Of a stretch of DNA of 64,000 bases, positions 14,474-38,725 are shown one piece after another. The stretch lies in NCBI RefSeq assembly GCF_056746865.1, contig NZ_CM163382.1; one strand, written 5' to 3'. A program made the translations under genes and the position numbers. The notes under the pieces are model-generated. The model was not told the DNA's origin. It worked only from the letters and a program-made list of their open reading frames with translations, and did no database searches. Within the stretch, counting starts at the first letter, position 1. Every line of letters starts with the position of its first letter.

Positions 14474-14487
14474 TAAAGGACTATCTC

Positions 14488-15543: not shown

Positions 15544-15553
15544 GGGGCGGCTA

Positions 15554-16113: not shown

Positions 16114-16269
16114 TGCGGGTTATGCGGGTTACCGGGTTATCTTAGTATGCTAACTATTTTTTGTTCTTTAGTATCAATATGTTGCAAAATACACTGTTCA
16201 TTATTCAAGCATCACATAACCCGCAAAACATCCCAAATAACCCGCAAACGCCCCAAAATAACCCGCAAA
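16114..16269. repeat. Iteron cluster A (crr-like cis replication region)
   Basis: Three direct copies gcgggtta(t/c) at 16114-16140, an AT-rich spacer of about 75 bp, then three inverted copies ataacccgcaaa at 16216, 16237 and 16258 (21-bp spacing). Confidence 0.6.
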
Positions 16270-18015: not shown

Positions 18016-21000
18016 CTATTTCATCTGCTCTTCAACTTTATTTAGTAATGGTGATATCGCCCACAGATTCTGAAAAGGTAGCATTTTACGGACAGCGTGG
18101 GTTTGCTGGCTGTCAAATTCTCCGTTAAGTACACCATTTGCAACCGTCGCGGCATCACCGCCAAGATCAAAGGTAGGACCAAGTAAAGCACCAATAGCAT
18201 TACGACTCTGAAACCTTGATACCGGAGGCGCACCAAACATCGCGCCAAGACCAAACCTACCGCCGCTTATGTTCTCAACGGTATTCAGCGGCTCAGAGAG
18301 CCAGCCAAGCATTCCGCCCCGGTCGATCCCCTCTTTCACAAGGTTATTCCAGCTGTAGTCGATATCGCGACCGCTTAACTTCTGTTTCATCATATAGACC
18401 ATTGAGCCAAGCGCAATCGTGCCAAGCGCACCAAGATAGAATGAAGCATCGCCCTGCTGGATACCAGATACCAACACCCTGTTATGCTGTGCGAAGATAA
18501 ACGTTTTGAACTGCGTGATCATCTTCCAGCCTTCTTTACTAAAAAACAGCGGTGTATCACCTACGCCAGGCGTTACAATCACTGAGTCTACATCTTTCAG
18601 CACTGCAGACTGGAAAATCTCTCTAGCGAAACGGTCATCCCACAGATGACTATGCCCGGTTAACAGCCCGTCCATATCCTCTCCGTGCTTCCCGAATTGC
18701 TCCCCGATTCGGCGCAGAACATCTTCATTGATGCCGACCTGTGCCATCTTCCGCATTTCACTTTTGGCGAGCGTGCCACCAGCAGAAACCTGGCGAGCCG
18801 CGTCAAGTATCCTCGACTGCACTATCATCCCGGACCATGATTTAAGTGCGCTGTTCCACTGATTCATCAGCGTCCAGTTACCGAATTTCTGCGTCATCCA
18901 GTTCAGGCCTCGCTCAGCGGCGCTTCTCCGGCTATAGGGGTCAGTAAGATCCGCTATAGCCTTTGTACGCGTAGACAGGACATAATCAAGCCCAACGGCC
19001 ATTTCTCGCAAATCCCTGGTTGCAATTTTCACTGAGTCCATATTTTTAAGCATGCTTACCATTGGTCCGAGAGATTTTCTCAGGCCATGCTGCATCATCG
19101 GTCGCATCAGATCAGTTGCAGCGGAGACGGTCATTCCACCAAGCAAACGGAGGAAGTTAATATTCCTAGCAACTCGCCCGGCACGAACAAAGAAACTGCG
19201 TGGATCTTGAGGTGCGCCGTAAGTACCAAGCAGTCGGTCACGCATAGCCGTAATATCCCTAATATCAGCCTCCCGTTGCTTCTCAAGAGCTGCACGTCGT
19301 TTAGGTGTTTTAGCCTCTTTTATTAGCCGGGTATATTCCTCACTAACCTGACGGATTTGCTCCCCCATATCTTTACGGCCAAACTGCGCAGTCAGCTCAA
19401 TTTCTGGTGCCACCTGCCGGAGATAACTTTCCATGATGTAGTTAACATCTGATTCAAGAAAATCTTCTATACGCTCATCAGGAATAAGCAGCGTTCGGCT
19501 TTTAGTGAAACCAGCCCGACCAACGAGTCTCTCTGGGATAATATCGGCTGGTACAAGCCCGGAAGGTGCGCCTATTATTTTATTCACGATCTCGTCAGCA
19601 GCGTCCTCTGCTTCCTCTCGGGATAGAGGCTCCATCTGCTTCAGTGCTCGCTCGCGGCTTGCATTCAGCCTTGTGGTTGAATTTGCCCGTTTTTGCAGTC
19701 GGCGAAGCTCAGAACGATATTTCCGTGGATTATCCAGCAACTCCATATGGCGCTGATAGACAGGAAGCTCACTCTTTGCCTGCGCTATATCATCAAGGCG
19801 TGTTTTAAGGTCAGAGCTTTCTTTCATCATTCTTGCCTGAAGTTTTTCTGATGAAGTCTCGGCCAACTCTTTTTCTATTCTTGTAAGACGCGCCTGTGTG
19901 TCAGTCTCCTGAGATATAAGCTTATTTCGTTTATCCAGTTCTTCCATGAGTAGAATTTTTTTACCAGACCATTTCTCCGCTTCAGCGATTTCACTAGCGA
20001 GAGCATCAGCGCGCGGTGCCGATTCCTCTGCAGTTTTTAGCAATGAATTTATCCTTTCAATTCGCTGACCTGCTTTGTCAGCACCTTTGGCACTAATCCC
20101 TTGTATCCAGTTGGCAATTCGCCCTCTGAATTCAGTGCGGTCGGAAAGTATCTTATCGAACTTATAAATGCGGGGAAGATAACTTTTCGCCGTCACGACA
20201 TCGATATCCTCAGGAAGGATCCCCAGTTCCTGCATACGGGCTTTTGTGGTCTCGAAAATGGGGCGGATTCTGGCGGCTGCTTGTGAAACCTCAGGAATAT
20301 CACTCTGATCACCACGGCGCATAGCCATGCCAACAGCTTCATTGAAATCAATAAAGCTCATCCTCTTCACGCCGCGGGCGCTGACAGATTTGCTGTACTG
20401 CTGGTAAGCATCACGAGTGGCTTCCATCTGCTTATAAAGCATGGCGTCGTATTGCTTAATCTTAGTCTCGACTGCCGTAAACGTAGCCAACCCCTCATCA
20501 TTTTTGGCGAAGAAATAGTTATTTTCGGCAAGCTGCTGGTTAATCTGACGGGAGACAAGAGATGGTGATTGCGCCAAGCGGCCAGCAGGAGTGACACTCA
20601 ACGTTTTGTTAGCAAGTCCAAGTCCAGCGAGCTGTTCCTGATCGAGTGTGGTATTGAAAACCTGAGCTGCACCAATGCTTTGAGGAGAATCCATACCTCG
20701 CAAATGATTACCTACTGAGTTAACCACTGCCTCGCGCGCGCTAGGTCCAGCAAGTAGCTGTGCACCAGCACCAAGGATCCCACCAACGAGAGCATCAACA
20801 ACAACGTTCGATACGCTCTCCATCGGTGAGCGAGCTTCCTGAGTGGCCTGCAATGCGGCCTCTGAAGCAACACTGCCAGCAGCATTGGCTAAAGCAAAAC
20901 GTCCGGCTGTTTCTGCAATACGACCGCCACGAACGACAGCGCCGAACGGAATAAACATAGAAATCGCATTGAATGGATCTGCTAATCTCATTGCTACAGA

Positions 21001-21405
21001 AGAGACTGTACCAGCAAATCCCAAGCCTGAATTGTATTCCATGTCAGCTCTCTGCTGATCGATTCGATGTTTAATTGCCATTGTTTCTTCAGGCGAACCG
21101 GAGTTGATAAACGAATCTGCAAAATCTTCATAGCCTTTAATATCTGCTGCATCGTTATCAAATGGGTTATATCCTTCAATCCTGTCAAACTGACTGAAAG
21201 GAGCACTGGCAATAAAGCTACCCAGCGTGTTATCTATACGAAATGCTGCTTGTCTAGACCTTTGAACGCGTTGATCACTGGTAAATGGGTTCACAGCAGA
21301 AAGCAAAGAAGGTGTTTCCATATAGAAATTACTGTCATCAGGTGCTGCTATTTGCTGAATATCCTCGCCAAGCAACTCTTTAGGATCCTGTTCATATATC
21401 GGCAT
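18016..21405 (-). CDS. Very large protein of unknown function (1129 aa; second gene of cargo operon)
   Basis: Long uninterrupted ORF; small-residue-rich hydrophobic segments (GAGAQLLAG, GALGTIALGSMVYMM, GLGAMFGAPP), long coiled-coil-like Glu/Lys/Arg/Gln-rich stretches, no P-loop or HExxH motif. Start codon overlaps the stop of the upstream 915 aa gene (TAATG). Confidence 0.75.
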   Translation of the reverse strand: MPIYEQDPKELLGEDIQQIAAPDDSNFYMETPSLLSAVNPFTSDQRVQRSRQAAFRIDNTLGSFIASAPFSQFDRIEGYNPFDNDAADIKGYEDFADSFINSGSPEETMAIKHRIDQQRADMEYNSGLGFAGTVSSVAMRLADPFNAISMFIPFGAVVRGGRIAETAGRFALANAAGSVASEAALQATQEARSPMESVSNVVVDALVGGILGAGAQLLAGPSAREAVVNSVGNHLRGMDSPQSIGAAQVFNTTLDQEQLAGLGLANKTLSVTPAGRLAQSPSLVSRQINQQLAENNYFFAKNDEGLATFTAVETKIKQYDAMLYKQMEATRDAYQQYSKSVSARGVKRMSFIDFNEAVGMAMRRGDQSDIPEVSQAAARIRPIFETTKARMQELGILPEDIDVVTAKSYLPRIYKFDKILSDRTEFRGRIANWIQGISAKGADKAGQRIERINSLLKTAEESAPRADALASEIAEAEKWSGKKILLMEELDKRNKLISQETDTQARLTRIEKELAETSSEKLQARMMKESSDLKTRLDDIAQAKSELPVYQRHMELLDNPRKYRSELRRLQKRANSTTRLNASRERALKQMEPLSREEAEDAADEIVNKIIGAPSGLVPADIIPERLVGRAGFTKSRTLLIPDERIEDFLESDVNYIMESYLRQVAPEIELTAQFGRKDMGEQIRQVSEEYTRLIKEAKTPKRRAALEKQREADIRDITAMRDRLLGTYGAPQDPRSFFVRAGRVARNINFLRLLGGMTVSAATDLMRPMMQHGLRKSLGPMVSMLKNMDSVKIATRDLREMAVGLDYVLSTRTKAIADLTDPYSRRSAAERGLNWMTQKFGNWTLMNQWNSALKSWSGMIVQSRILDAARQVSAGGTLAKSEMRKMAQVGINEDVLRRIGEQFGKHGEDMDGLLTGHSHLWDDRFAREIFQSAVLKDVDSVIVTPGVGDTPLFFSKEGWKMITQFKTFIFAQHNRVLVSGIQQGDASFYLGALGTIALGSMVYMMKQKLSGRDIDYSWNNLVKEGIDRGGMLGWLSEPLNTVENISGGRFGLGAMFGAPPVSRFQSRNAIGALLGPTFDLGGDAATVANGVLNGEFDSQQTHAVRKMLPFQNLWAISPLLNKVEEQMK

Positions 21406-24152
21406 TATTTGCCCCCTGCGTATATATTGCTCGGAAGGTAATTGGCTGAACCATAACCGAATGGTTTGGTCAGATCTGGAGGAGTATATCCATCTTTATT
21501 GCTGAACTGCGGCAGCGGATTGCCTTCTCTCCGCACTCTAGCCTCATCAACACGCTGTTGCTGGAACTGAATGGTTTGCCTGTACATTGGAGATGTCAGC
21601 TGATCCGGCTTGAAACGAACAGGGAGACCATTTTCTCCAATATAATTTCTCGGTTCTATCGCTCCGTTTGCGTCAGGCTGTAAAACCATAACAGCATAAC
21701 TCCTATCCCTTGCCGTAAGGCCATCAGAAACAAGTATTAAGTCCGTATCACTGCGAGGACCGCCAAAGGATTTTGATTTAAGCTCGCGTTTTTCCTGCTC
21801 CCACTGCCCCTGTATCCAGTTACCAGCACCATTATTTACTCCGTACAATGCCTCAGGTGCATACTTCATAACCTCTGCTTTGCCATTAACCGTAGAAACT
21901 CCCCAGGTGGTTCTGATCATGGCATTGGTCATTTTCTCAGCCTGTTCTGCATCGCCACCTGTCTGTACAAAGTTAGCATCGTAAATTGTCTGGTAATCTC
22001 GCTGATAGGCCGCATTTGATTTTCCTGGATCGGTAATATCCGGAGACCACGAACCAAAGGAAGTCAGACTGCTGGCGTTATTTTGTGCAGCAGTTACCCT
22101 CGCCGCGACATATTTTTTGTCTCGCATGGCAGTGGAAAGCATCTGTTTCATTCGGTCATCCTGTTGGAACACCTGACTGTAAGCCATATCAACAGCCTTA
22201 TCCTCCGGCACGCCAGCGCGGGAATAATCGTAAACCTTGCCATAAAATGCCATCGTACTTTTATCAAGTGTTGCCGCTGCCGCCGGATTATTATCGAATA
22301 ACTGACCGTAGAATTTTGCCATCGGGACAACCAGCGCAGGATCTCTTGATGTTGCTCCACTGTTAAGCATTGTTTTAACCTGAGTTGGTATCATGCCGCT
22401 TTTAGTTGTGACGGTGACCAGTGTATTGATGCTCTGCGGATCAGATATGGAAAACGAAGGCGCGATATCCTGCGCGAAATAACGGTCTACCGCTGCCTGA
22501 TTGTTTTTGTCGTTCGGGTCCAGCGGGAAGTTATTTTGCATTGAAGACACGAACCTGTTTCTTCCCTGCTGAATCTCCCACTCCCTATCCATCTCTTTAA
22601 ATTTGGCCTGCATTTTCTCCCAGCGTTGCTGGTTAGCAGCAAATCCAGGAGCATTTGGATCCTGTGGACGTAAACGTTCAAGAATGTCTTGTCGTCCTTC
22701 TGGAGTGAGGTCTTTAGCGGCACCAATGACACCTCCATATTGTATCTGCGCCTGCATATCCTTCCACTTCATAGCGCCAATGCGCGGACCATTGGCCCGG
22801 ATAAAATCGTCCTCAGAAGGTAACTTCTCAGGTTTCAATCCTTCATCAAGGGCTGAATATGCATCTTTAACTACGGTGCTAAGCTGGTCCGCATACTGCT
22901 GGCGGTACTGATTTCTCAGCTCATTAGCCTGCCTCAATGCCTGTATTTGCATTTGAGGGCTCATAGCATCAAATGCCGCATTGCCCGTATAACGCTTAGG
23001 TGAATCAAGGTTAGTTAGACCAAGGGCTGCCGAGATACCAGTTTCAAGCTGTTCGGTGCTATAAGGCATACTGCCATTTTCGTGTTTAATAATCCCAGCA
23101 CATAAAGCAGCTAGTGTCTTTGGGTTAGAGATATCAAGCTGATCATTCTCCCCAACACCAAGCTCACCACACAATGCCCTAATATAAGCATCAGTATTAT
23201 TACCATCACTAGCCGGAGCATAGCGATTAACAATCTCGCTAACGGTGTCATAGCCTTGACGCTGGTAAGACAACATATTTTTACCCAACGCGCGGATTCC
23301 ATGCTCAGGGGTAGCAAACGTTGCAAAACGTCCATCGCTACCGATCTGACCTTCCCACGGGTTAGATTTGCTCGCTTCAATATTACCAGGGTTATTATTA
23401 CGTAAACCACGAGCATCCAATGAATTACCATGTGATATTGCACGACTCACACCATCAAGATCCCCTGGCTCTCCATTAACCTGAAGAAACTCGTTGTATT
23501 TTTGAGCGATATTTCCTATCCATGCTTGCTGCCCCATTTGTTCCTTGAGCTGAGTTTTCTGCTGAACACGCCACTCATCAGGAAGCCCATGCGCATCAGC
23601 GTATTGATCAATAGATTCAAATCGCTGCTTGGCTAAATCGACAAATGCTTGGTTATAGCTATATAGCCCCGCAGACTGAGTGACAGCCAATGCATTTCCT
23701 GACAAATACGTTTGATCTTGGAATTGCTGAAACTGCCCAACTTCATATCGACGTGCCTGATTGTAATAAGACTGCATAGACTGCTGGAGTTGAAAGGATA
23801 ATTTATTCCTTTCCTCACTTTCAGGGATTGAGCCTAATAATGCCTGAGCCCTTTCCTGCATATTTTTCATAACAGCGTCACTCTGACCAAGAGCGTTTTT
23901 ACCCTGTTTAGAAATCAGCCCATTTTCAGGGTTGTTAATCTGGTCATCTGCAAATTGGTTAAATTGCAGTAACGCCTCCTGGGCCATAGCAACATTCGCT
24001 TTCTGCCTGGCTTCACCATATGCCACCGCATACTGATCTGCGACATTCGCCAGCACCTGACCTGCTTGAGGAACATCGAAGGTCTGAAAACCACCGGTTT
24101 GCACACCACGACTTTGCACCTGGCGTCCGGATGTAGTAGGAACAACAAGCAT
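21405..24152 (-). CDS. Very large protein of unknown function (915 aa; first large gene of cargo operon)
   Basis: Long ORF preceded by strong SD (AGGAGGT 6 nt upstream); Gln/Ala-rich helical protein with a central block RNNNPGNIEASKSNPWEGQIGSDGRFATFATPEHGIRALGKNMLSYQ that looks like a conserved domain I cannot assign. Confidence 0.75.
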   Translation of the reverse strand: MLVVPTTSGRQVQSRGVQTGGFQTFDVPQAGQVLANVADQYAVAYGEARQKANVAMAQEALLQFNQFADDQINNPENGLISKQGKNALGQSDAVMKNMQERAQALLGSIPESEERNKLSFQLQQSMQSYYNQARRYEVGQFQQFQDQTYLSGNALAVTQSAGLYSYNQAFVDLAKQRFESIDQYADAHGLPDEWRVQQKTQLKEQMGQQAWIGNIAQKYNEFLQVNGEPGDLDGVSRAISHGNSLDARGLRNNNPGNIEASKSNPWEGQIGSDGRFATFATPEHGIRALGKNMLSYQRQGYDTVSEIVNRYAPASDGNNTDAYIRALCGELGVGENDQLDISNPKTLAALCAGIIKHENGSMPYSTEQLETGISAALGLTNLDSPKRYTGNAAFDAMSPQMQIQALRQANELRNQYRQQYADQLSTVVKDAYSALDEGLKPEKLPSEDDFIRANGPRIGAMKWKDMQAQIQYGGVIGAAKDLTPEGRQDILERLRPQDPNAPGFAANQQRWEKMQAKFKEMDREWEIQQGRNRFVSSMQNNFPLDPNDKNNQAAVDRYFAQDIAPSFSISDPQSINTLVTVTTKSGMIPTQVKTMLNSGATSRDPALVVPMAKFYGQLFDNNPAAAATLDKSTMAFYGKVYDYSRAGVPEDKAVDMAYSQVFQQDDRMKQMLSTAMRDKKYVAARVTAAQNNASSLTSFGSWSPDITDPGKSNAAYQRDYQTIYDANFVQTGGDAEQAEKMTNAMIRTTWGVSTVNGKAEVMKYAPEALYGVNNGAGNWIQGQWEQEKRELKSKSFGGPRSDTDLILVSDGLTARDRSYAVMVLQPDANGAIEPRNYIGENGLPVRFKPDQLTSPMYRQTIQFQQQRVDEARVRREGNPLPQFSNKDGYTPPDLTKPFGYGSANYLPSNIYAGGK

Positions 24153-24555: not shown

Positions 24556-24580
24556 AAAAAAAAGCCGGATTGCTCCGGCT
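24556..24580 (-). terminator. Intrinsic terminator on minus strand (agccggagcaatccggct + T8)
   Basis: Hairpin followed by eight T on the minus strand, placed between the IS200/IS605 element and the cargo operon. Confidence 0.45.
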
Positions 24581-24785
24581 CTGTGCTTACTTCTGGTAGT
24601 TACGCCATACTGATTTCCCGATCCCATCTATCCCCATTTCTTTTTCAGTGCGTTTAAGCGACCGTTTCAGGTCTTCTAAATTATCCGGTTGCTTCGGTGG
24701 CCTCTGTGCCTTCCTGGAACATTCCAGTCGTCGCATTGATATTTGACATCCTCCACGCCCTGAAGGACGTGGATTCCTGCTACGT

Positions 24786-25994
24786 TCAGGCTGTCGCCTG
24801 AATCATTTCGGTGGGTTCCTGCTTCAACGGGCGGCCTGACTGCACCATCCCTCCACAGGCAAGAACGGCGTGCCCCGCCGCTAAAATGTTACGAGCGCCG
24901 TTTACATCGGCGTTCGCTGTATATCCACATACCTGGCATCTGAATTGACTTTGTGACAGGCGATTTTCTTTCGCTGTATGACCACAGCACGCGCAACGCT
25001 GGCTTGTGTACGCTGGCGGAACAGCAAGCACCTGACCGCCACACCAGAGCTGCTTGTACTCAAGCTGACGGCGCATTTCATACCAGCCCTGATCCAGTAT
25101 CGAACGGTTTAAACCTGATTTTGCCCGGACATTGCGCCCCGGCTGGCTGACCGTACCCGAGGCTGACTTTGACATGTTGCTGACCTTCAAATCCTCAATG
25201 ACTATCATTGCGTGGTTTTTGCTGATGGTCGTTGTGACTTTGTGAAGGTAGTCCCTGCGGATATTTGCGATACGGGAATGCAGTCGCTGTATTTTGCGTT
25301 TCTGCTTCTGCCAGTTGTTGCTGAATTTAACCTTGCGGCTTAACTGGCGCTGAAGTCTCGCCAGCTTCTTCTGGTTTTTATGAAAACTGTTTACAGGCTC
25401 AAAGACCGTGCCATCTGACAGCGTGGCGAGTTTAGCCACGCCAGCATCCAGCCCGACCATTAATGCTGAAGGGTGAACCGGAGTTGATACTTCACTTTCT
25501 GTCTGAATACTGATGTACCACTTACCGCAGGACTGGCTGACAGTGACATTTTTCACAACACCCGTGACCTGACGGCTGTTCCGGTAGCGCATCCAGCCCA
25601 GTTTCGGCAGAAAAATACGGCTGTTTTCCTGATCGAGCTTAACACCCTGCGGATAGCGGAATGCATCATGCTGTCCCCGCTTTTTGAATCGGGGAAAAGC
25701 GGCACGCTTCTGAAAGAAATTTTTGTAGGCTCGCTCAAGGTCTTTCAGTGACTGCTGCAATGGCTGTGAGGGAGAATCTTTAAGCCATTGCGTTTCAGTA
25801 GCATTTTTCCATTCAACCAGCCAGGAAGTCATCTTTGCATAAGAAATATATTTGTTCCCGGCCTCATGATTCTCATTCTGAAGCGCCAGAGCACGATTGA
25901 AAACGAAACGACATGCGCCCGCGAAGCGCCTCATTTCACGCTCCTGTTTTCCATTTGGTCTTAACTGGAATTTGAAAGCTTGTAGTCGTTTCAT
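24786..25994 (-). CDS. tnpB: TnpB (OrfB) RNA-guided nuclease-like protein of IS200/IS605 family
   Basis: 402 aa with a C-terminal zinc finger (CACCGH...CQVCGY) and RuvC-III-like motif (DVNGARNI). Confidence 0.85.
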
Positions 25995-26016
25995 ATGCCA
26001 AATTATACTTTGGCCT

Positions 26017-26433
26017 ATGAAAAAAGAAACCGATATCCGACGTGGAAGGCACTGTGTCTTCCTGATGCACGTTCACCTGGTCTTTGTTACCAAGTACCGA
26101 CGCCAGATTTTTGACCATGACGCAATAGAAAAACTACGCACTTACTTTTCAAGTGTATGTGCTGATTTTGAAGCTGAACTGGTTGAAATGGATGGAGAAC
26201 GAGATCACGTTCACCTGCTAATTAACTATCCTCCCAAATTGGCGATATCCACCCTGGTGAACAGTCTCAAGGGCGTATCGAGTAGATTATTGCGACGAGA
26301 TCGACCAGATATTGCAGTCAGGTATTACTACAAAGGCGTTTTATGGAGTCCCAGCTATTTTGCCAGTAGCTGCGGAGGTGCGCCAATATCCATCATCCGC
26401 CAATACATTGAACAACAGCAAACACCTAGTTAG
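26017..26433 (+). CDS. tnpA: IS200/IS605 Y1 (HUH) transposase TnpA
   Basis: Internal start MKKETDIRRG of ORF 25897..26433; HUH motif HVHLVF and the catalytic-Tyr region YYYKGVLWSPSYFASSCGG. Confidence 0.85.
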   Translation: MKKETDIRRGRHCVFLMHVHLVFVTKYRRQIFDHDAIEKLRTYFSSVCADFEAELVEMDGERDHVHLLINYPPKLAISTLVNSLKGVSSRLLRRDRPDIAVRYYYKGVLWSPSYFASSCGGAPISIIRQYIEQQQTPS

Positions 26434-26516
26434 GTGGAAAACCGCGCCTTATATCCCCGACCTGAAGGACGGGGCTTTACGGCGCACTGGGTAATTACTC
26501 TGTTCGCTGTTGTGAA

Positions 26517-26942
26517 TTAAAACGGTATCCCGTCCCCGTACGGATCATCGTGCTGGCCTGTCTGTTGCTTTGCCCTGTTCAGTGCATCAGTAGCCTGCCC
26601 CTGCTGGCCTTTTTTGCCGCCCGGTCGCGCCGTTCGCGCACTGATTACGCTGTCTGCGATAACCTGCCATCCCTGCCTCGTTTCGCCGTTCTGGCCCGTC
26701 CACCAGCTCACCTGCATGTTACCGGCCACGCTCACCAGTTCGCCTTTGTGGTGTTTTGCCAGTGCGTCAGCCTGTCTGCCAAACGCCAGGACGGATAACC
26801 ACATCGTCGCCGTTCCGTCATCTGTCTGATTGCATGGAAGGGGGACCGCCATACTCGCCATCGCCATTTGTGTGCCCTTGCTGGTGGTCTTTAACTGCGG
26901 GTCAGCCACCAGCCGCCCGTAAGCTGATATTTGCGCCGTCAT
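26517..26942 (-). CDS. ssb: Single-stranded DNA-binding protein
   Basis: 141 aa OB-fold-like protein with a Gly/Gln-rich tail ending in the acidic tip DDPYGDGIPF (SSB C-terminal D..IPF signature). Confidence 0.85.
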   Translation of the reverse strand: MTAQISAYGRLVADPQLKTTSKGTQMAMASMAVPLPCNQTDDGTATMWLSVLAFGRQADALAKHHKGELVSVAGNMQVSWWTGQNGETRQGWQVIADSVISARTARPGGKKGQQGQATDALNRAKQQTGQHDDPYGDGIPF

Positions 26943-27002
26943 GCTGTTTGTTCTCCGGTTTTAACGTGATAGTTACGCTTGTTTACACTCTTACAGTGAA
27001 AT

Positions 27003-27130
27003 TTTGCGGGTTACAATCGCACATTTGCGGGTTATAACTGCCGTTTTGCGGGTTACGTGCGGGTTATTAATTTCCTTTTTAATCATTCAGTTAATTAACT
27101 TATGCACAGGATAACCCGCATAACCCGCAA
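27003..27130. repeat. Iteron cluster B (candidate replication origin next to primase gene)
   Basis: Four direct copies (t)gcgggtta at 27003-27067, an AT-rich spacer, then two inverted copies ataacccgca at 27111-27129; same 9-mer as cluster A. Confidence 0.6.
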
Positions 27131-27152
27131 CTTTTTACCTCACACAGGGAAG

Positions 27153-29279
27153 TTAATCTTCTGCTTCAGGCTGGAACATCAGCACGTAAAAAATATGTTG
27201 CTTCCCGCCAATCCTGCCGAGCGCCTTTTTCTTGTAACGGCGGTCGCCTCCCGCTTCCAGCATTCCGGCTGCACTCAACGCGCGGGCAAAGTGAGACGGA
27301 TTAAATCCCTGTGCTATCTCACCCTCAAACACATGCGGGAACGTGTAAAAACGGAACTCGTCATCTTCGTTTCTGATACTCCCCTTTCTGTATCCGGCAA
27401 GGTCTTTAATCGGTAAATCACGCTCGTCGCTGTTTGGATAGGGAAGGTATCGACTGAACCCGAACGACGACAAAAACGCCTCAGCCTGTTCAACCATCTG
27501 TTTAAACTCCCTGTTCCCCGTGCCGAACTCCTTCACCCAGGCATTAAAATTATGCTGAATGGCATCGCGGCATTCCTGCTCATCCCAGCCAGTAACATGA
27601 CCGGAAAGTACAAGCGCGGCCTCCAGTATGGCGAATCGTTCCCCCACACGGTGAACCTGTTCGCCGTAGCTCTCCGGTATCAGGTTGCGCCACCGCTCGC
27701 GACATGCCCTTACCGCGTCCTTTGCCTCCTGCTGGTGTTCTGCCAGCCATTTAACCCACTCACGACCTGCCGCCCCGTGATTTTCTGTCCAGGCATCTTT
27801 TAACGCGTCTGCGTGCGCCTTTCCGGTGCTGTATTCGTGAAACTGCGAGGCCTTTTCCATCGGCACGTTAAGCAGACGGACAAGCTGCCCCGCTTTAATT
27901 TTTATCCCTTCCGTTTTGAGGAATGTTTCAACGTCCATTTCTCCGGTGCTGATTGCCACCGTGCGCCAGTGTTTTATCTCCCTGTTGCCGCCGTCCTTCG
28001 CCCCCTGTAATTTCCCCGAACCGTTAAACAGCGTATAGGCTGACGTGGACACCTCCCGCGCGTTTCCGGCCTGGCCTATTTCATCCAGGGGTAACAGCCC
28101 GTCATTATGTGCTTCGGCCTCGTTGGCGATACCTAACGCCGTTCCGTACCAGGTCAGCCGTTGCGCGTCCGGCTCTCCCCATAAACTTGATGCAATGTTC
28201 TGTGTGGTGGTTTTACCTGCTGATGATTGCTCAAAAAGATGAACCCCGAAGCCGTCAGCACCCACCAGCCCGATTAATGGTGCAGATAGCGATACCGCCA
28301 CACCCAGCATCATGGACGGATTACCACCAGCCAGCCGTGCCACGGTATCGCGCCAGCCCTCCGCTGTTCCCGCCACGGAATAGCCATTAACAGCGGCAGT
28401 TTTTCCGGTAAACAGGATGGGTTTCTCTGATTCACCGATGATCGAACCATCCGGCATGATGTACGCACCAAAATGCCACCCCGTTGTTGTGCTTAACTGC
28501 CATTCCTCATGGTTTCCGCTTAACTGCATCCAGTCAGCCAGGATAGCCCTGTATTTGCCGTTGGTCGTCACGTTAAGGCCGTGGTCTTTCAGCAACCGCC
28601 AGCCGTCACGGTCACCAATGCCTCCGCACGGGACCGCCATTGTAATGACCTCATGGTTTGCTGGTTTTTTCCAGCGCATCACGCGGTAATGCTCTTTGCC
28701 GATTGTTCCTGTTCCCAGTAGTTCAAGCGGAGAACATAACCACGTCTCAGGCCGGATAATTTCGCCTGACTGCTTGTCCACTTTGGGCGTTACCCAGAAA
28801 ACACCATCGACGCGACTTTCAACACGAGGCTTTAATTCGTCATCATAATTTCCGGTGAAATTTGTCTTCGCCGGAAGGTTGATCACCAGACTGTTACCGC
28901 GTTCCGCATCATACTTCAGTCCAGCCATGCGCGGAGTCCAGTCCTCCGGCTGCTGATCAACAAAGCTGCGGTAGCAACGCGCCTCCTTCACACCCGCCAC
29001 TGCAAGCAGTGTCGCTATCTGTGTAAGGTGCTGCTCTGATATTTCACCAGCACGATAAATGCGCACGTAATAGCGTCCTTTGTCGATGATTTGCGTGTCT
29101 GCCAGACTCGCCAGTTGTTCCGGTCCAAGAATAACTGGATGTGTATCATCTGCCGCAATATGCTTTCCGGCCCATTCGCTCCACTCTTTCGCATGTGCCC
29201 AGGCATCACTACCCGCAAAGATAATCACCTCCGTCATTTTGTCTTTCGGCTGGTGCTTTAAATTCGGTGCGCGTTTCAT
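27153..29279 (-). CDS. Primase-helicase (TOPRIM-like N-terminus, P-loop NTPase of the DUF927/D5 type), P4 alpha-like replication protein
   Basis: 708 aa; N-terminal TOPRIM-like segment (VIIFAGSDAWAHAK...PVILGPEQ) and Walker A EQSSAGKTT; iterons lie immediately downstream. Confidence 0.75.
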   Translation of the reverse strand: MKRAPNLKHQPKDKMTEVIIFAGSDAWAHAKEWSEWAGKHIAADDTHPVILGPEQLASLADTQIIDKGRYYVRIYRAGEISEQHLTQIATLLAVAGVKEARCYRSFVDQQPEDWTPRMAGLKYDAERGNSLVINLPAKTNFTGNYDDELKPRVESRVDGVFWVTPKVDKQSGEIIRPETWLCSPLELLGTGTIGKEHYRVMRWKKPANHEVITMAVPCGGIGDRDGWRLLKDHGLNVTTNGKYRAILADWMQLSGNHEEWQLSTTTGWHFGAYIMPDGSIIGESEKPILFTGKTAAVNGYSVAGTAEGWRDTVARLAGGNPSMMLGVAVSLSAPLIGLVGADGFGVHLFEQSSAGKTTTQNIASSLWGEPDAQRLTWYGTALGIANEAEAHNDGLLPLDEIGQAGNAREVSTSAYTLFNGSGKLQGAKDGGNREIKHWRTVAISTGEMDVETFLKTEGIKIKAGQLVRLLNVPMEKASQFHEYSTGKAHADALKDAWTENHGAAGREWVKWLAEHQQEAKDAVRACRERWRNLIPESYGEQVHRVGERFAILEAALVLSGHVTGWDEQECRDAIQHNFNAWVKEFGTGNREFKQMVEQAEAFLSSFGFSRYLPYPNSDERDLPIKDLAGYRKGSIRNEDDEFRFYTFPHVFEGEIAQGFNPSHFARALSAAGMLEAGGDRRYKKKALGRIGGKQHIFYVLMFQPEAED

Positions 29280-29578
29280 TTCTTGCCCCTGAATGCGTTA
29301 ATCATGTTCTTTATTACCTGAATATTTGCCCGTGCTTTCTCTTTACTGGTGGGCTTACTGCGTGGTGCTGCACATACCAGTGAAAAATCACGCCGGAACT
29401 GATGAACGGGCATCACACAGTCATAGTCGTACCCTGCGCGGCGGTATGTAATGTGCCGTTCATACACGGAATTAATAACCACGCTGTCGCCATATTTATC
29501 CCGGAAAATATCCCCGATCCTGATTTTCGGATGAGTCTGTCCGCTGGCATTTAAGCCAGTAAATTTAATCTTCTTCAT
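29276..29578 (-). CDS. Hypothetical protein (100 aa), translationally coupled to primase gene
   Basis: ORF whose stop overlaps the primase start; no recognisable motif. Confidence 0.5.
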   Translation of the reverse strand: MKKIKFTGLNASGQTHPKIRIGDIFRDKYGDSVVINSVYERHITYRRAGYDYDCVMPVHQFRRDFSLVCAAPRSKPTSKEKARANIQVIKNMINAFRGKK

Positions 29579-29580
29579 GT

Positions 29581-29838
29581 TTATTTCCCGGTGTGAGGTT
29601 CTTCTTTATATTTATGGGCTAACAAATCTGGTAATTGCCTGTATTTATCCTCGGCAATATATTCAGAATAATCGACAGCACTGTTCAGTATATCTAACGC
29701 CGTTTCATGCTCCAGATTCGAAACTATAAGGAACGTTGCTACTTTTAGCATATTCGCGATATGCAAAAGAGCATCAATTTCATTTTTTGGCGCTTCACTG
29801 AATTTTTGCTCCAGAAGAATAAATCGTTCATCACGCAT
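29581..29838 (-). CDS. Hypothetical protein (85 aa)
   Basis: ORF in the same operon, 2 nt upstream of the next gene. Confidence 0.5.
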   Translation of the reverse strand: MRDERFILLEQKFSEAPKNEIDALLHIANMLKVATFLIVSNLEHETALDILNSAVDYSEYIAEDKYRQLPDLLAHKYKEEPHTGK

Positions 29839-30034
29839 AGTATTCCCCCTGACGGATGCGGGCAGTAAATACCATCACGCAGCCAGCCGGGGATTGCTGG
29901 CGTGCTTCCTGTTCGCTGGTGGCCACGATGGTAATCACACGCGGTTTTGCGGCGCTCAGGGCGATAAAACGCCAGGCGAATTTATTCAGGTTGTGCGAAT
30001 CCCGCCCTTGCGGGTGTATGGTATGATTTCTCAT
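29831..30034 (-). CDS. Hypothetical protein (67 aa), first gene of replication operon
   Basis: C-terminal part of the spurious 415 aa ORF 29831..31078; start ATG at 30034 is preceded by GAGGT and overlaps the next gene by 8 nt. Confidence 0.45.
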   Translation of the reverse strand: MRNHTIHPQGRDSHNLNKFAWRFIALSAAKPRVITIVATSEQEARQQSPAGCVMVFTARIRQGEYYA

Positions 30035-30130
30035 AGCTACCTCGATACTCTCGTTATCGTTGGTGGTTAGAAGCCCTGCGAGTGGTAACGACACTTGCGG
30101 GGCTTTGTTTTTTGTTGCACTTACTGTTAA

Positions 30131-30174
30131 TGTACGTACGTAATATTGATGATAATAGGAGTTACGTACGTACA
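30131..30174. promoter_or_regulatory. Operator: inverted repeat tgtacgtacgtaa-N18-ttacgtacgtaca in divergent promoter region
   Basis: 13-bp arms, each containing the self-complementary octamer GTACGTAC; the right arm overlaps the start codon of the RHH gene. Confidence 0.5.
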
Positions 30175-30365
30175 TGTCAACATTAAAGCGGGATAAATCA
30201 CCACGCGGCGAGGGATGGTCGCCGACATTCCAGATACGAATTAGCAAAGAACTACGCCAGCAAGTAAACGAGGCAGCAACCGCCGATGGCCTAACCCTCG
30301 GCAATTGGTTTAAAGAATTAGCTCGTGCCGAACTAAAGCGACGCGGCATTGAACCTAAAGGCTGA
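30174..30365 (+). CDS. Ribbon-helix-helix (Arc/Mnt/CopG-like) DNA-binding protein, candidate repressor
   Basis: 63 aa; FQIRISKELRQQVNEAATADGLTLGNWFKELARAEL fits the beta-strand/helix/helix RHH pattern; it sits on the palindromic operator. Confidence 0.55.
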   Translation: MSTLKRDKSPRGEGWSPTFQIRISKELRQQVNEAATADGLTLGNWFKELARAELKRRGIEPKG

Positions 30366-30551
30366 TGTATGACTGAAAAGCAGACCGATAACAAACTTTC
30401 TCTACCAGAGAATAAACCAGCAGGCTTCTTACCAAGAAAAATCCTTGATGAGATCAAACGCCGCCAGCGGCGCAAGGCCAAAGAGCAGGAGTAACCATCA
30501 CCAGCGCCGTGGTGCGGTGAACTGTGGCGCACAGGGTTACAGGTATCTACG

Positions 30552-30749
30552 ATGACTGACAAATCATTAAAGAAATTATCCTCATCCAGGAAAAAACAAC
30601 GCAAAAATGCGGTAAGCGAACAAGAACAGGAAAGATTTGCGCCATGTGCGTTTGTCCTTGAGAAGTTCTTAAAAGAGTACAGGCGCACAAAAATGGAATC
30701 GCATACCTGGAAAACATCGCAGTATGGCGATGCTAAAGAGCAGGAATAG
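30552..30749 (+). CDS. Hypothetical basic protein (65 aa)
   Basis: ORF only; weak support. Confidence 0.3.
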   Translation: MTDKSLKKLSSSRKKQRKNAVSEQEQERFAPCAFVLEKFLKEYRRTKMESHTWKTSQYGDAKEQE

Positions 30750-30917
30750 CCCACCAGCAAGCCAGCACACTGATCACATTGCCCACCAGCCGCAAATCTG
30801 GCATTGTTGGCGATGCGTTTGATTTCCTTTGTTCCCACTGGCGACCTATCCCGGTCGCCTTTGTTTTGCCTGTTATCCAGCAACGGGGCGCTTTTTCTTT
30901 CTGTAACGTTCGGATCG

Positions 30918-31475
30918 TTACACATTGCTTTCACCCTCCAGAAAATCAGGCTGATATTTACGCCATAGCGCCCGCTCTTCTCGTTCCAGTGCATCTTTTG
31001 CCTCTTTGCATTGCTGTAACCTGTAACCGCGTTTGCTGGCTTCCTGTTGATATGCAGCCTGACGTTTACTGAAATCATTCAGCATGGCAAACGGAACACC
31101 ATAACCCCCCGTTTTGCGGATTGAAGGAATCACCTCGCGGAATACCCAGTTACTGAAACGGTGCGCAAATGTGCCTGGTGTGGAAGCTTTACGGCTGCGG
31201 GCGATCAGTTTGTAGAAACCTGATTCAGAGACAACATTCCAGCTTCTGGCACCACCACGCTTACCGGAATGACCCTCGGTTAAAGCTAGGGTCATTACCT
31301 CATCGTTATCCAGAACTGAAACGGCATCAGTAACATTGCTGATTTCCAGCGCGGCACACACATCAGCGCCAACAAACCACGGCTCGCCGTTGATACTCAC
31401 TATGCGCACCTGAATGTCATCGAATTTAATGACAGAGATTTCAGTGCGACCGGCATAAAAGACAGGTTTACGCAT
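30918..31475 (-). CDS. Bro-N domain protein (phage antirepressor-like)
   Basis: 185 aa; N-terminal Bro-N-like segment FDDIQVRIVSINGEPWFVGADVCAALE. Confidence 0.7.
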   Translation of the reverse strand: MRKPVFYAGRTEISVIKFDDIQVRIVSINGEPWFVGADVCAALEISNVTDAVSVLDNDEVMTLALTEGHSGKRGGARSWNVVSESGFYKLIARSRKASTPGTFAHRFSNWVFREVIPSIRKTGGYGVPFAMLNDFSKRQAAYQQEASKRGYRLQQCKEAKDALEREERALWRKYQPDFLEGESNV

Positions 31476-32292
31476 GGCTGCTCACCTCCATGCGGCGGGC
31501 TAACCAGCGTTGCGAAAGACGAATTAATTCAGCTTTCCGCTGGTGGTAGTCCTGGCCTAACTCAATCAGCGTGATATTGCTCTGCTCAAGGTAAGAAAGG
31601 TGCTCAAGCTGCAGCGTGCTCATGTGGTCGCGTGGTTCGCCTGTGATGCCGTTCGCCTGCGCCCACTGTTTTGCATTCATGCCACCCAGCACGATACGCG
31701 CCAGCATATTGGCTTCCGTGGTGTAGTGGTGCTGGAGCGTGTTTTTACCCAGTTCAGCCCGGTACGCCTCCAGCGCGGCACACATTGGCTTAAAGTAGCT
31801 GGCTACGGTGATACGGGCTTTCAGTTCCCGGCGTAACGCTGCGGAACGTACAGGCGCTACCTTGTGTAGCTCCTCCTCGCATTTGATGAAGTACTGACGA
31901 ACGGCGCGGCCCTGTTCGGTGCGTTCGATCATTGCCAGTTCTTTCGCCATTCCGACACTTAACAGATAGTCTTTACCGGGTCTGCCAGAGTGCTTAATCT
32001 TGCTGTAAGCCTCGCCATTCGGGCTTTTCCCCAAATTTGGGGAAATTGTTTTATGGACTGAGTAATCGTACCCAATGGTGAAGTCATATTCAGAGATACG
32101 ATCAGTGATCCATGTAGAGAAGTCTTTTCCCACGCCCAACGCTTTGTGTAACGCTTTTGCGCTAACAACAGCGGCTTCACGCCCGCCAATAACGCCGGAA
32201 ATAACCGGGATAATTTCGCCGAAATTTTGCAGATTCTGGTTTTCAGGCCGAACAAAGCCCTGCCCCTGTACGGGCGTTTTTCGCAGTTTCAT
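31468..32292 (-). CDS. Phage antirepressor-like protein (Ant/KilAC-type)
   Basis: 274 aa; resembles prophage antirepressor proteins (ALHKALGVGKDFSTWITDRI); start overlaps the Bro-N gene. Confidence 0.55.
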   Translation of the reverse strand: MKLRKTPVQGQGFVRPENQNLQNFGEIIPVISGVIGGREAAVVSAKALHKALGVGKDFSTWITDRISEYDFTIGYDYSVHKTISPNLGKSPNGEAYSKIKHSGRPGKDYLLSVGMAKELAMIERTEQGRAVRQYFIKCEEELHKVAPVRSAALRRELKARITVASYFKPMCAALEAYRAELGKNTLQHHYTTEANMLARIVLGGMNAKQWAQANGITGEPRDHMSTLQLEHLSYLEQSNITLIELGQDYHQRKAELIRLSQRWLARRMEVSSHA

Positions 32293-32367
32293 AAAAACTC
32301 CGCTATCGAATTAAGTTACTTTTTATTTGCTAGTGGATAGCTTGGGCAATAACCCGTAGCTATTTAA

Positions 32368-32565
32368 TCAGGCAGCCGTTCCGCGTGATTCGGCAATACG
32401 CTGATTGATCCATTCGTCAATTTCACTTTCAACGAAAGCAATCGCTCGCGAGCCAATTTTAACTGATGCAGGAAATTTACCTTGCCCCATAAGGCGATAA
32501 ATCCATGCCTTGCTATATCCAGTTCTACGCTGAACTTCTGTTAAACGAATAAGCGTATTTGACAT
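32368..32565 (-). CDS. alpA: AlpA-family transcriptional regulator / excisionase-like protein
   Basis: 65 aa with the MerR-like HTH pattern of AlpA (LIRLTEVQRRTGYSKAWIYRLM...SEIDEWINQR). Confidence 0.8.
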   Translation of the reverse strand: MSNTLIRLTEVQRRTGYSKAWIYRLMGQGKFPASVKIGSRAIAFVESEIDEWINQRIAESRGTAA

Positions 32566-32668
32566 CTATTTACCTCATAACGTCTACTCAATTTGACGAG
32601 GTAATCATGGCACAGAAATAACGAATATTTTCATACCCTCAGGCCTAATGGTTACCGGAAGGAAATTA

Positions 32669-32777
32669 ACCCTAAGGGTGATGGTAATCGGGAGGAAATC
32701 TACCCTAAGGGTGATGGTAAAATTGACGGGGAAGATAAAAAAATACCCTCAGGGTAACAGTAAATCACCCTCAGGGT
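32669..32777. promoter_or_regulatory. Array of four palindromic sites ACCCT(A/C)AGGGT upstream of alpA
   Basis: Copies at 32669, 32702, 32745 and 32767; the first two are embedded in a longer direct repeat (accctaagggtgatggtaa). Confidence 0.45.
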
Positions 32778-32792
32778 ATGCGGTATGGTGCG

Positions 32793-33596
32793 TTAATCCG
32801 GCTTTGCGTTCTTTTGGCTGTTGTCTCGGTTAATAGGGCAGGCAGTCCTCTCTATGAGCGTTGCAAGAGCATTACTTGCCCCCCACTGCTTAAGCTCCCT
32901 AGTTATCGCTTCTTGATTTCCCCTGGTGGCAAAATCATTTTCTGGATCGTAATTGGCCCACTCTCTGTTTCTAATCTCAATAGCCTTAGCTAATGGGTCT
33001 TTATCCCAGTATTTATATAAGTGTATCGGGCGCTCTTGCTCTAACTGCTCTATCCTTGCCCTTAACTCTGCGTTTTCTCTTTCCAGCATTGCGATTTGGG
33101 ATAATAAATCATCCTCTGTACGCAACTCTTTCTTTTCAATATCGCGTCCTTGTACCTCGTCATTTTCAGAAGAGTTAGCGCCTTCCAGCTTCGTTAACGC
33201 GTCAAGGACATCGGGAAAAATTGCGAAAATTTCACCCCTTATAAATCCAATGTTCTCAAATTCGGGATCTTCCCAATAACCGGACACCAGAAAACCATTT
33301 TCATCCCTCTCACCAGGTAAACAACCATGTTTCCGAACCGCATCCAGATTTCTATAAAGAACATCATAATCAAATTCATCCCGATACGGGTTACAAAAAG
33401 ATTCCAACAGCTTAAATTCATTTACTGTGTACAGGCGGATATGTTCTCCGCTTATTCTCCTGAGTATCCAAGTTATGAGATCTGAAACATCATAATCATC
33501 ACCAGCGACCTTAAGCACGACCTCAAGAAATTCACGTAAAGAAATAAAATCTTTTTTGTATTCGTTTAATTCGGCATGAATATCAATCATACGCAC
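32793..33596 (-). CDS. Hypothetical protein (267 aa) between integrase and alpA
   Basis: Acidic protein with a coiled-coil segment (IAMLERENAELRARIEQLEQE); no catalytic motif recognised. Confidence 0.6.
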   Translation of the reverse strand: MRMIDIHAELNEYKKDFISLREFLEVVLKVAGDDYDVSDLITWILRRISGEHIRLYTVNEFKLLESFCNPYRDEFDYDVLYRNLDAVRKHGCLPGERDENGFLVSGYWEDPEFENIGFIRGEIFAIFPDVLDALTKLEGANSSENDEVQGRDIEKKELRTEDDLLSQIAMLERENAELRARIEQLEQERPIHLYKYWDKDPLAKAIEIRNREWANYDPENDFATRGNQEAITRELKQWGASNALATLIERTACPINRDNSQKNAKPD

Positions 33597-33718
33597 ACCT
33601 CAGCGTCCTCTACTGTAGTGGCTGTGCCAGCCCGTCGAGGTATACGGTTTTTCGGGAGCGACCCTAGACACAGCTTTTTCTTTCGTCGCTCAAAGTCTAC
33701 TACTGTATACTCAACCAG

Positions 33719-34972
33719 TCATCCACATTTTCCGAACTTGCCATGCACCACGTTGCCGCCCTGTTCCAGTGAGTCCATATAGTCGGCGTACCACTGGAGC
33801 ATCTCGCGCCGCCCGTCCAGATATTGCGCATGATTGTACGTGCCACGAATTGAGTTCTTATCAACGTGTGCAAGCTGCGTTTCTATCCACGCGGTGTTAT
33901 AGCCCTGCTCATGTAAAATCGTGCTCATCGTGTGCCGGAACCCATGACCAGTAACGCGCCCAGAATAGCCAATACGACGAATAAGCACGTTCATCGCCAT
34001 TTCACTCATCGGCTTACTGTGCTGGATTCGACCAGGGAAAATAAACTGATACTGCCCCGTCATGTGTTTTAACTGTTCCAGAATAGCGATCGCCTGTTCT
34101 GAAAGCGGCACACAATGAGGACGGCGCATCTTCATTCGTTCTTTAGGCACTTCCCACAAACGATTATCAAAATCGATCTCCTGCCATTCTGCCTGTCGTA
34201 ATTCCCCTGGCCGGAGCCCTGTCAGAATCAATAATCGCATACCCAGCTTGACGATCTGGCTTCCGGTGTACGTATTAAGAACGCGGAAAAATTCCGGCAG
34301 TTCGTCGGCCTTCAAATAGGCATAATGCTCTTTTTTGTGTGGAGCAAATGCGCTTGCCAGATCTGGTGCGGGGTTATATTCAGCGCGTCCGGTGATGATT
34401 GCGTACCGGAACACCTCGCCGCATCGCTGGCGAACCTTACGCAATTTTTCGGTCGCCCCACGGTCATTAAGACGGGAGAGAACCGCAAGCAACTCCATTG
34501 GCTTAATTTCTGCGATCGGCCTGCCGCCAATGTACGGAAAAACGTCTTTTTCAAACGTCTCGATCATTTCCTCGGCGTATGACGATGACCACCTGTCGAT
34601 CCGCTTTTCATACCATTCGCGAGCGATACCCTCAAAAGTATTGCCAAATTTGCTCGCCTGTTCTCGCTTTTGAGCTTTTCTGGCCTCACTTGGATTTATA
34701 CCACCAGCAAGAAGCCTTTTAGCCTCATCCCTTGCCGCTCTGGCATCAGACAGAGACACATCAGGGTACACGCCCAACGACAACATTTTGGGCTTTCCTG
34801 CAAATCTGTAACGTAGTCGCCACCCTTTCGAGCCGTTCGGCTCAATGAGTAACGAAAGCCCGTTACCGTCATTGAGTGTATAAGCCTTTTCTTTCGGCTT
34901 CGCGCGCCTGATAGCAAGGTCTGAAAGCAGCATGTGTATAGCTCCAAAAAATAAATTTTGTCCTATACGCAT
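33719..34972 (-). CDS. int: Tyrosine site-specific integrase (P4 / CP4-57 IntA family)
   Basis: 417 aa with an N-terminal arm-binding-like domain and a C-terminal catalytic region (HGFRHT, LAHVDKNSIRGTYNH); adjacent to the tRNA 3' end. The true start may be the internal MLLSDLAIRR. Confidence 0.9.
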   Translation of the reverse strand: MRIGQNLFFGAIHMLLSDLAIRRAKPKEKAYTLNDGNGLSLLIEPNGSKGWRLRYRFAGKPKMLSLGVYPDVSLSDARAARDEAKRLLAGGINPSEARKAQKREQASKFGNTFEGIAREWYEKRIDRWSSSYAEEMIETFEKDVFPYIGGRPIAEIKPMELLAVLSRLNDRGATEKLRKVRQRCGEVFRYAIITGRAEYNPAPDLASAFAPHKKEHYAYLKADELPEFFRVLNTYTGSQIVKLGMRLLILTGLRPGELRQAEWQEIDFDNRLWEVPKERMKMRRPHCVPLSEQAIAILEQLKHMTGQYQFIFPGRIQHSKPMSEMAMNVLIRRIGYSGRVTGHGFRHTMSTILHEQGYNTAWIETQLAHVDKNSIRGTYNHAQYLDGRREMLQWYADYMDSLEQGGNVVHGKFGKCG

Positions 34973-35097
34973 TACTATACACTTCTGTGTGTAGATTCTG
35001 GTAGTTGTGAGTAGACGTTAATAAGCTATGAAAATGGCTGAAAGGCTTGATATTCGTGGATTTGATGGACTTCAGTAGACGTTGAGAAATGTTTGTT

Positions 35098-35171: not shown

Positions 35172-35249
35172 TTCGAGATGCGTAAGGCATTATAAACCTT
35201 ACGCTCTCCTTAGCAAGTGCCGCGCTGCTGACTGCTGATTAATTCGCCA

Positions 35250-38715: not shown

Positions 38716-38725
38716 GGATAACATC

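Follow-up and report, generated by a model that had tools for sequence, protein, structure and literature searches.

The 64,000-nucleotide (nt) stretch of NZ_CM163382.1 analyzed here, called the window throughout (the whole stretch, not the element alone), carries an insertion sequence (IS) of the IS200/IS605 family at positions 24743-26490. The element holds a gene for a Y1 HUH transposase, tnpA, and a gene for a member of the RNA-guided endonuclease family, tnpB; its active (top) strand is the minus strand of the window. We are highly confident that it is a complete, probably active member of the IS609 type with a build like that of IS608. Elements of this kind are already known: it is a close relative of Escherichia coli IS609, with TnpA and an RNA-guided TnpB nuclease. 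What the present analysis adds are base-exact ends, the TTAC target, a 983-bp deletion at the insertion site and the identity of a small open reading frame (ORF) beside the element.

The tnpA product matches Pfam Y1_Tnp (E 3.5e-42, 143.8 bits) and aligns with IS608 TnpA (2a6m; E 5e-21), where its DHVHLL falls over the HUH motif DHIHIL and its RQYIEQQ over KQYIENQ of the tyrosine helix that bears the catalytic Tyr. The ATG at 26017 is also the annotated tnpA start in identical public copies. TnpB contains the Pfam domains HTH_OrfB_IS605, OrfB_IS605 and Cas12f1-like_TNB (a zinc ribbon) and aligns with ISDra2 TnpB (8bf8/8exa; E 1.8e-55), gap-free over residues 3-95; the RuvC Asp/Glu/Asp motifs are matched by GLDAG, VIEDL and ADVNGARNI, and the protein has both CxxC pairs. 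The two genes are divergent, with a spacer of 22 bp. An initial annotation, made from the sequence alone, had called an IS200/IS605 element with a Y1 HUH tnpA divergent from tnpB. The coordinates and Pfam matches bear this out and confirm the tnpA frame, and the assignment to the family is further backed by direct-repeat hairpins and by comparison of targets and ends.

How widespread is this element? By megablast, the block 24743-26494 is present in 5118 of 5426 complete E. coli genomes, and the edges of the block are 24743 and 26494, TTAC included. Public copies, where they are named, appear as IS609, insQ or 'RNA-guided endonuclease InsQ/TnpB'. The element is identical to the IS609 copy at ydcO at 1665 of 1748 nt (95.3%) and to the plasmid copy L004 at all 1748. 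Two E. coli plasmid copies, L004 and L024, the latter on an IncI2 plasmid named pEC1266-mcr, are 100% identical to the window element and have different flanks. Such identical copies occupy at least three different sites, one of them on an IncI2 mcr plasmid, from which we infer recent movement.

Boundaries and end structures of the element

Where exactly does the element begin and end? Nine other copies lined up on the minus (tnpB) strand are alike up to ...GGAGGATGTCAA and unrelated beyond it. On the other side they are alike from CC(A/G)GTGCGCC, always with TTAC or TTAT directly before. A comparison table of 17 IS609-type elements, the window's and 16 others, extends this: 15 of the 16 others lose all similarity directly behind TCAA, the degenerate L015 being unreadable, and the left end is preceded by TTAC or TTAT in every copy with a readable boundary. 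A close relative of the surrounding island that lacks the IS, on the E. coli CS5L chromosome (L003), has flanks 98.9% identical to those in the window; its match breaks off after 24742 and resumes at 26491. The line-up of copies and L003 together therefore place the IS from 26490 down to 24743 and make TTAC host sequence. The TTAC of this site, site A, is indeed present in L003, where ...CAGAGTAATTAC is followed by AGGGG.

The initial annotation had listed the region as 24587-26480, the small ORF included, and had suggested aligning related copies to fix them. The element is real, and the alignment puts its tnpA-side end at 26490, 10 nt beyond 26480, and its tnpB-side end at 24743. An assignment of the A at 24743 to the flank was rejected on recount; the right end is ...GTCAA and the flank begins ATATCAATG, as in L003. 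The flanks on the two sides of the insertion are unrelated, in keeping with the lack of target-site duplication that is a trait of the family, as is insertion 3' of a fixed tetra- or pentanucleotide.

Each end carries an imperfect hairpin of 20 nt, and both hairpins sit within a 24-nt direct repeat (24752-24775 and 26454-26477, 83% identical). The 10-nt core CTGAAGGACG occurs twice in the 64 kb, once in each hairpin, with 0.12 occurrences expected. Similar hairpins with a shared core on one strand had been read at 24753-24772 and 26455-26474 from the start, and the direct repeat upholds that reading. Direct rather than inverted orientation of the end hairpins is the IS200/IS605 pattern; there are no terminal inverted repeats. 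Folded as single-stranded DNA (minus strand), the right-end segment clearly outdoes its shuffled versions (z = -3.5). The left-end segment yields a similar imperfect hairpin, whose fold is no better than that of shuffles (z = -1.2).

Read along the minus strand, the left end runs from TTAC through CCAGTGCGCCGT-AAAG to the hairpin CCCCGTCCTTCAGGTCGGGG, and the right end from GAAT through the hairpin CCACGTCCTTCAGGGCGTGG and AGGATG-TCAA to the flank. In IS608, the cleavage sites are TTAC and TCAA, the left guide is AAAG, and the four bases 5' of each hairpin foot serve as guides (PMC3201880). TCAA there lies 10 nt 3' of the right hairpin foot, with A and G just 3' of the foot, and the right end makes the G-35/A-34 contacts (PMC3201880). 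Taken together with what Barabas and colleagues (2008) are reported to have found, these contacts give GAAT as the right guide of IS608. As read from the sequence, the guide and cleavage pairings of the window element, AAAG with TTAC and GAAT with TCAA, agree with this scheme. All features are collected in Table 1.

Table 1. Features of the element, its insertion site and its surroundings (positions in the window)
Feature	Positions	Strand	Remarks
Complete IS609-type IS200/IS605 element	24743-26490	active (top) strand = window minus strand	1748 bp
TTAC target tetranucleotide, site A	26491-26494	-	TnpA left cleavage site, presumed TnpB transposon-associated motif (TAM); host sequence
Left-end 5' segment CCAGTGCGCCGTAAAG	26475-26490	-	last four bases AAAG
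Left DNA guide AAAG	26478-26475	-	adjoins hairpin foot; would pair with TTAC as in IS608
Left-end imperfect hairpin CCCCGTCCTTCAGGTCGGGG	26455-26474	-	from fold and direct repeat
tnpA, Y1 HUH transposase	26017-26433	+	138 amino acids (aa), reads toward left end; Pfam Y1_Tnp
tnpB, RNA-guided endonuclease family	24786-25994	-	402 aa, intact; three Pfam domains
TnpB codons 51-56	about 25827-25844	-	compared with L004-L015, L021-L025
Predicted omega RNA scaffold	24743-24900	-	tnpB 3' end plus right end; 5' limit approximate
Right DNA guide GAAT	24773-24776	-	adjoins hairpin foot; role by analogy with IS608
Right-end imperfect hairpin CCACGTCCTTCAGGGCGTGG	24753-24772	-	also last stem of the predicted RNA
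Right cleavage site TCAA	24743-24746	-	last four IS bases; cut 10 nt 3' of hairpin foot
Predicted 16-nt guide AUAUCAAUGCGACGAC	24727-24742	-	flank within perC remnant; a 20-nt guide would reach 24723
49-aa ORF, 3' remnant of PerC-family gene (codons 41-90)	24587-24736	-	Pfam PerC
Native perC terminator-like stem-loop, then T-run	24561-24582	-	kept in L001, L002, L003
ssb	26517-26942
DUF927 primase-helicase	27153-29279
Integrase	33719-34972

A miniature derivative of the element was encountered on two records: L020 151-202 (E. coli plasmid NZ_CP058715.1, 23439-23490) and NZ_CP178440.1 30001-30052. It is 48 nt long, consists of CCAGTGCGCCGTAAAG-CCCCGTCCTTCAGGGCGTGG-AGGATGTCAA directly after TTAC, and is annotated in neither record. 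A single hybrid hairpin is common to the 5' part of the left end and the 3' part of the right end, which is what recombination between the two hairpin cores, with loss of the 1.7-kb interior, would leave.

A 983-bp deletion at the insertion site

Is the element a simple insertion? Both window flanks lie together in one place in 43 genomes (L003 and 42 others), about 2236 bp apart in every match listed. The IS-free relatives possess an extra 983 bp with genes for a ProQ/FinO-family protein and a hypothetical protein of 138 aa, besides the 5' part of perC. On the L003 minus strand, site A, just after ssb, reads ...CAGAGTAATTAC and then AGGGGAAGGCATG..., and site B, in perC, reads ...AACGGTATTAC and then ATATCAATGCGACGACTGG.... 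The window has the TTAC of site A, then the IS, then ATATCAATGCG.... The TTAC of site A lies 22 nt after ssb and site B 983 bp further on; the missing segment begins right after the first TTAC and ends with the second. Bounded in this way by TTAC on both sides, its two junctions are tied to the target choice of the element itself. A gain of the 983 bp by the IS-free relatives was considered and rejected, since intact 90-aa perC genes in L001 and L002 make the 5' half of perC ancestral. The element had been described as separating a cargo operon from an SSB/ori/primase module; it does lie between them, but it replaces 983 bp rather than being simply inserted. Lost at the locus were the ProQ/FinO-like gene, the 138-aa gene of unknown function and half of perC.

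How was this segment lost? The most likely route, to which we give about an even chance, is that two copies inserted in the same orientation at sites A and B and that homologous recombination between them then removed the interval. What speaks against it is that synthetic junction queries of the 5426 complete E. coli genomes found the proposed intermediate, an IS at A alone or at B alone, in none of them.

A single insertion would suffice if TnpA itself had made the deletion, a possibility that we regard as less likely and for which the absence of single-site copies speaks. Starting from one IS at A, TnpA would cut after TCAA, AAAG would capture the TTAC of site B on the same strand in place of its own, and strand exchange would join the right end to the flank of site B and free the segment of 983 nt as a circle. 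The missing segment starts exactly at the right-end cleavage position of A and ends exactly with TTAC, as this chemistry predicts, and the half-reactions are the normal right-end and target cleavages of IS608 (PMC3201880, PMC5027513). Recombination between two copies, however, would yield an identical product, so that sequence cannot separate the two routes; no such reaction was found described in the searchable literature; and with six TTAC sites on the relevant strand of the 983-bp segment, use of the last one is left unexplained. More complex histories take up the probability that remains beside these two routes.

A deletion bounded by the element's own target tetranucleotide would thus be the footprint either of two nearby insertions, the route that we prefer, or of a deletion made by the transposase. 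If the latter were true, it would amount to an 'adjacent deletion' pathway, which we did not find described for IS200/IS605 elements.

A predicted guide RNA and two target types

What would TnpB use as its guide? The TnpB-bound RNA, about 150 nt long, corresponds to the 3' end of tnpB and the right end of the element; the flank supplies its final ~16 nt, which serve as guide, and the TAM is the same as the TnpA target (PMC8612924). It is likely that the window element specifies an omega RNA of this origin, to judge from sequence conservation and predicted folding. By the ISDra2 rule, the guide would occupy 24742-24727. The initial annotation had put it at about 24730-24750; a position just outside the tnpB-side end is supported, and 24743-24750 belongs to the right end. 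TTAC followed by the guide sequence is exactly site B of the IS-free islands. It occurs at no other place in the window, where the sole near match is the junction of right end and flank, with TCAA for TTAC.

For a structure alignment (A1), the final 190 nt were taken from eight homologues; their TnpB proteins are 43-100% identical to that of the window. The parts that do not vary among the eight are CCUGUGGAG...GCAGGAA, GGAAUCC and AGGAUGUCAA. RNAalifold predicted 39 pairs from the eight sequences, four of them with changes on both sides. A CGGCG...CGCCG stem within the tnpB coding sequence has a G-C pair turned into A-U in the Klebsiella copies by two synonymous changes, each of the eight homologues, despite differing sequences, forms a stem at the tnpB stop codon, and pair 178/207 of A1, in the last hairpin, occurs as CG, AU, UG and UA. 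A long-range pairing of ACAUUU with GGAUGU just before TCAA is predicted and kept in seven of the eight. It would be a possible pseudoknot in the same place as that of ISDra2 (PMC10097598).

On the tnpB strand, Rfam searches in E-value mode gave weak matches to HgcC (24730-24853, E 0.0017), sot0042 (24752-24913) and RAGATH-18 (24816-24859). HgcC and sot0042 presumably overlap the 3' ends of IS605/IS1341-type tnpB genes. RAGATH-18 is a known TnpB guide scaffold of IS607 elements (PMC11061315).

Several observations weigh against an active element with a working TnpB-RNA system. All three Rfam matches fall short of their gathering scores and serve as hints rather than as signs of family membership, and the RNA folded as a single sequence surpasses shuffles only modestly (z = -1.9). 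The structure alignment has eight sequences, and its last hairpin is needed by TnpA also as DNA. A promoter scan found no sigma-70-like promoter in or near the 22-bp spacer between tnpA and tnpB. Moreover, IS608 TnpB was inactive in one plasmid interference assay (bioRxiv 10.1101/2023.03.14.532601), so that an intact TnpB alone is no proof of activity. As for IS609 TnpB activity, the literature yielded only a mention of the protein being purified for a screen, without an IS609-specific result; a search for insQ found nothing relevant.

Could the element, then, be a non-functional relic whose TnpB makes no guide RNA or does not cut, the 3' structure being explained by the DNA hairpin of TnpA plus coding constraint? 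We consider this improbable. In many E. coli IS609 copies tnpA is indeed broken, internal stops being annotated in L007 and L011, and the IS608 assay and the weak Rfam matches point the same way. In the window, however, both genes are intact, identical copies at three or more sites argue for recent movement, and the compensatory changes lie in stems upstream of the DNA hairpin, in the tnpB coding sequence, at synonymous sites.

If the element is instead active, as we think probable, it would work as follows. TnpA would bind the two similar hairpins on the window minus strand and cut after TTAC on the left and after TCAA on the right, the cut sites being picked by pairing with AAAG and GAAT, respectively. 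As a single-stranded circle, the element would then reach new TTAC sites. The RNA bound by TnpB would derive from the tnpB 3' end and right end and continue into the flank, and the guide AUAUCAAUGCGACGAC would direct TnpB to TTAC followed by the guide sequence, that is, to predicted targets consisting of TTAC and then ATATCAATGCGACGAC. Such a target would be present in the joint left by IS excision and in the IS-free allele (site B in perC), and a TnpB cut there would force repair from the IS-bearing copy. A TnpB-RNA complex has been described as cutting the excision joint, with the element restored by recombination (bioRxiv 10.1101/2023.03.14.532601).

The 17 tabulated elements fall into two target types. 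TTAC lies directly before the left end in the window, L004, L006, L024 and L025, all with left guide AAAG and Thr56 in TnpB; it does so with a 1-nt boundary ambiguity in L005 and L021, and L021, from Salmonella, fits this group with a left end apparently 1 nt longer. The TTAT group comprises L007-L012, L022, L023, L014 and L015, with guide AAAA and Ala56. Position four of the target pairs with position four of the guide in the IS608 scheme (PMC3201880), so that a co-change from C:G to T:A is expected. When 10 close IS609-type copies are compared, the groups are told apart at just five of the 402 TnpB positions: the start codon, 14, 51, 53 and 56. Residue 56 follows the last target base in 17 of 17 elements, the distant L014 and L021 included; residues 51 and 53 track it incompletely. 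In the gap-free alignment, residue 56 falls on S56 of ISDra2, which together with Y52 touches the final TAM base in the ISDra2 structure (PMC10097598).

The switch between TTAT and TTAC may be a natural three-way co-change of target, left guide (AAAA to AAAG) and TnpB residue 56 (A56 to T56). Against a strict rule of guide and target stand L005 and L013, with ATAT at the guide place, and L019, with AAAG and an apparent TTAT; given these three exceptions, the rule is a trend within the IS609 group. The groups are also largely two clades, which makes the residue-56 correlation a lead, not proof. A pair of elements 95% identical with different targets offers a small set of substitutions for re-tuning the TAM of TnpB.

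The left ends of L005 and L013 are peculiar in their own right. Their guide region reads CCTTATAT where CCGTAAAG/A would stand; together with the ATATAAGG that lies 3' of the hairpin it forms a long, perfect palindrome, and the guide that would be expected is lost. These ends may be inactive or recognized in another mode.

The perC remnant, the island and relation to known systems

The 49-aa ORF next to the right end matches Pfam PerC (PF06069) at 53 bits (cut-off 22.6) over profile positions 41-88 of 90 only, short of the full ~90-residue profile. In the more distant relatives L001 and L002, ssb is directly followed by an intact perC of 90 aa, and the window ORF starts at Met41 of the intact protein (...ERHHIT, then MRRLECSRKAQRPP...). 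In L003, the closest IS-free relative, the equivalent of the window from 24587 onward (1988-2213) is annotated as a frameshifted perC with a degenerate start; perC was thus probably decaying before the IS arrived. The initial annotation had listed a possible 49-aa ORF ending at a terminator hairpin and had proposed checking its conservation elsewhere. The frame is open, it matches the C-terminal half of intact PerC in L001 and L002, and the stem and T-run are found at 24582-24561, native to perC. Judged by this homology, the ORF is the surviving tail of perC and not a separate gene. That it encodes a working short PerC-like protein, begun at Met41 with GGAGGA as ribosome-binding site and transcribed by read-through from tnpB, is highly improbable: although 49 codons are open and conserved with the C-terminal half of PerC, GGAGGA stands at the IS end 12 nt upstream of the ATG and the native terminator is retained, the N-terminal 40 residues are gone, the L003 gene had already lost its frame and start, and a spacing of 12 nt is long for an E. 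coli ribosome-binding site. Like the PerC/Pch regulators, the ORF matches the C-terminal half of the profile and lies downstream of ssb as its intact homologues do; it differs from them in lacking the N-terminal 40 residues and a start region of its own.

The IS lies within an island that adjoins tRNA-Gly(CCC) (35098-35171) and that carries, besides the integrase, the primase-helicase and ssb, an AntA-type protein. A search of a phage collection with the right flank (26495-40000) gave only a short match in the tRNA region, and the relatives of the island in a plasmid collection were all distant.

Three further observations concern the surroundings. Downstream of the IS, 18016-24152 on the minus strand holds two very large ORFs of 1129 and 915 aa; neither has an informative Pfam match, the 1129-aa ORF showing only a weak match to DUF919, and DNA ~80% identical to them is found on large Klebsiella plasmids. 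Type I-E cas genes at ~8100-15550 (ORFs of 899, then 522, 178 and 351 aa) adjoin the far end of the tRNA-Gly island; the 351-aa ORF, the only one of the four tested, matches Pfam Cas_CT1975. Finally, the 9-mer TGCGGGTTA occurs 11 times, with 0.6 occurrences expected, in two clusters ~11 kb apart. The cluster at 27005-27129 falls between the DUF927 primase gene and ssb and resembles the iterons of an origin. In the cluster at 16114-16267 the repeats are mirrored; it lies ~0.6 kb beyond the casC-like ORF, which is the final large ORF on that side.

How does the element compare with systems that have been characterized? With IS608 of Helicobacter pylori it shares direct-orientation imperfect hairpins, the TTAC target, the AAAG left guide, TCAA 10 nt from the hairpin foot, AG 3' of the foot, the aligned HUH and Tyr motifs of TnpA and the reported GAAT right guide. 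It differs in that its left hairpin foot lies 16 nt from TTAC, versus 19 nt in IS608, and in that its proteins are only distantly related to those of IS608 (E 5e-21 for TnpA). Furthermore, tnpA and tnpB are co-directional in IS608, whereas the window pair is divergent.

With ISDra2 TnpB, the window TnpB shares domain order and catalytic motifs. Its RNA would be expected to have the same origin, with ~16 nt of flank as guide, and its TAM to coincide with the target of TnpA. The TAM of ISDra2 is TTGAT, whereas that of the window element is presumably TTAC, and its RNA is predicted from sequence.

A close relative is IS609 at ydcO (insQ/tnpB plus tnpA), which has the same length of 1748 bp, the same divergent gene order, right-end hairpin and TCAA end, and a TnpB from which that of the window differs at 15-20 of 402 residues. 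The NCBI annotation pipeline (PGAP) labels the window-type TnpA merely as 'IS200/IS605 family'. Sampled IS609 copies target TTAT and have the guide AAAA, whereas the window variant has TTAC and AAAG; from window to IS609, TnpB changes by N14G, S51P, A53G and T56A, with a start codon of ATG in the window versus GTG.

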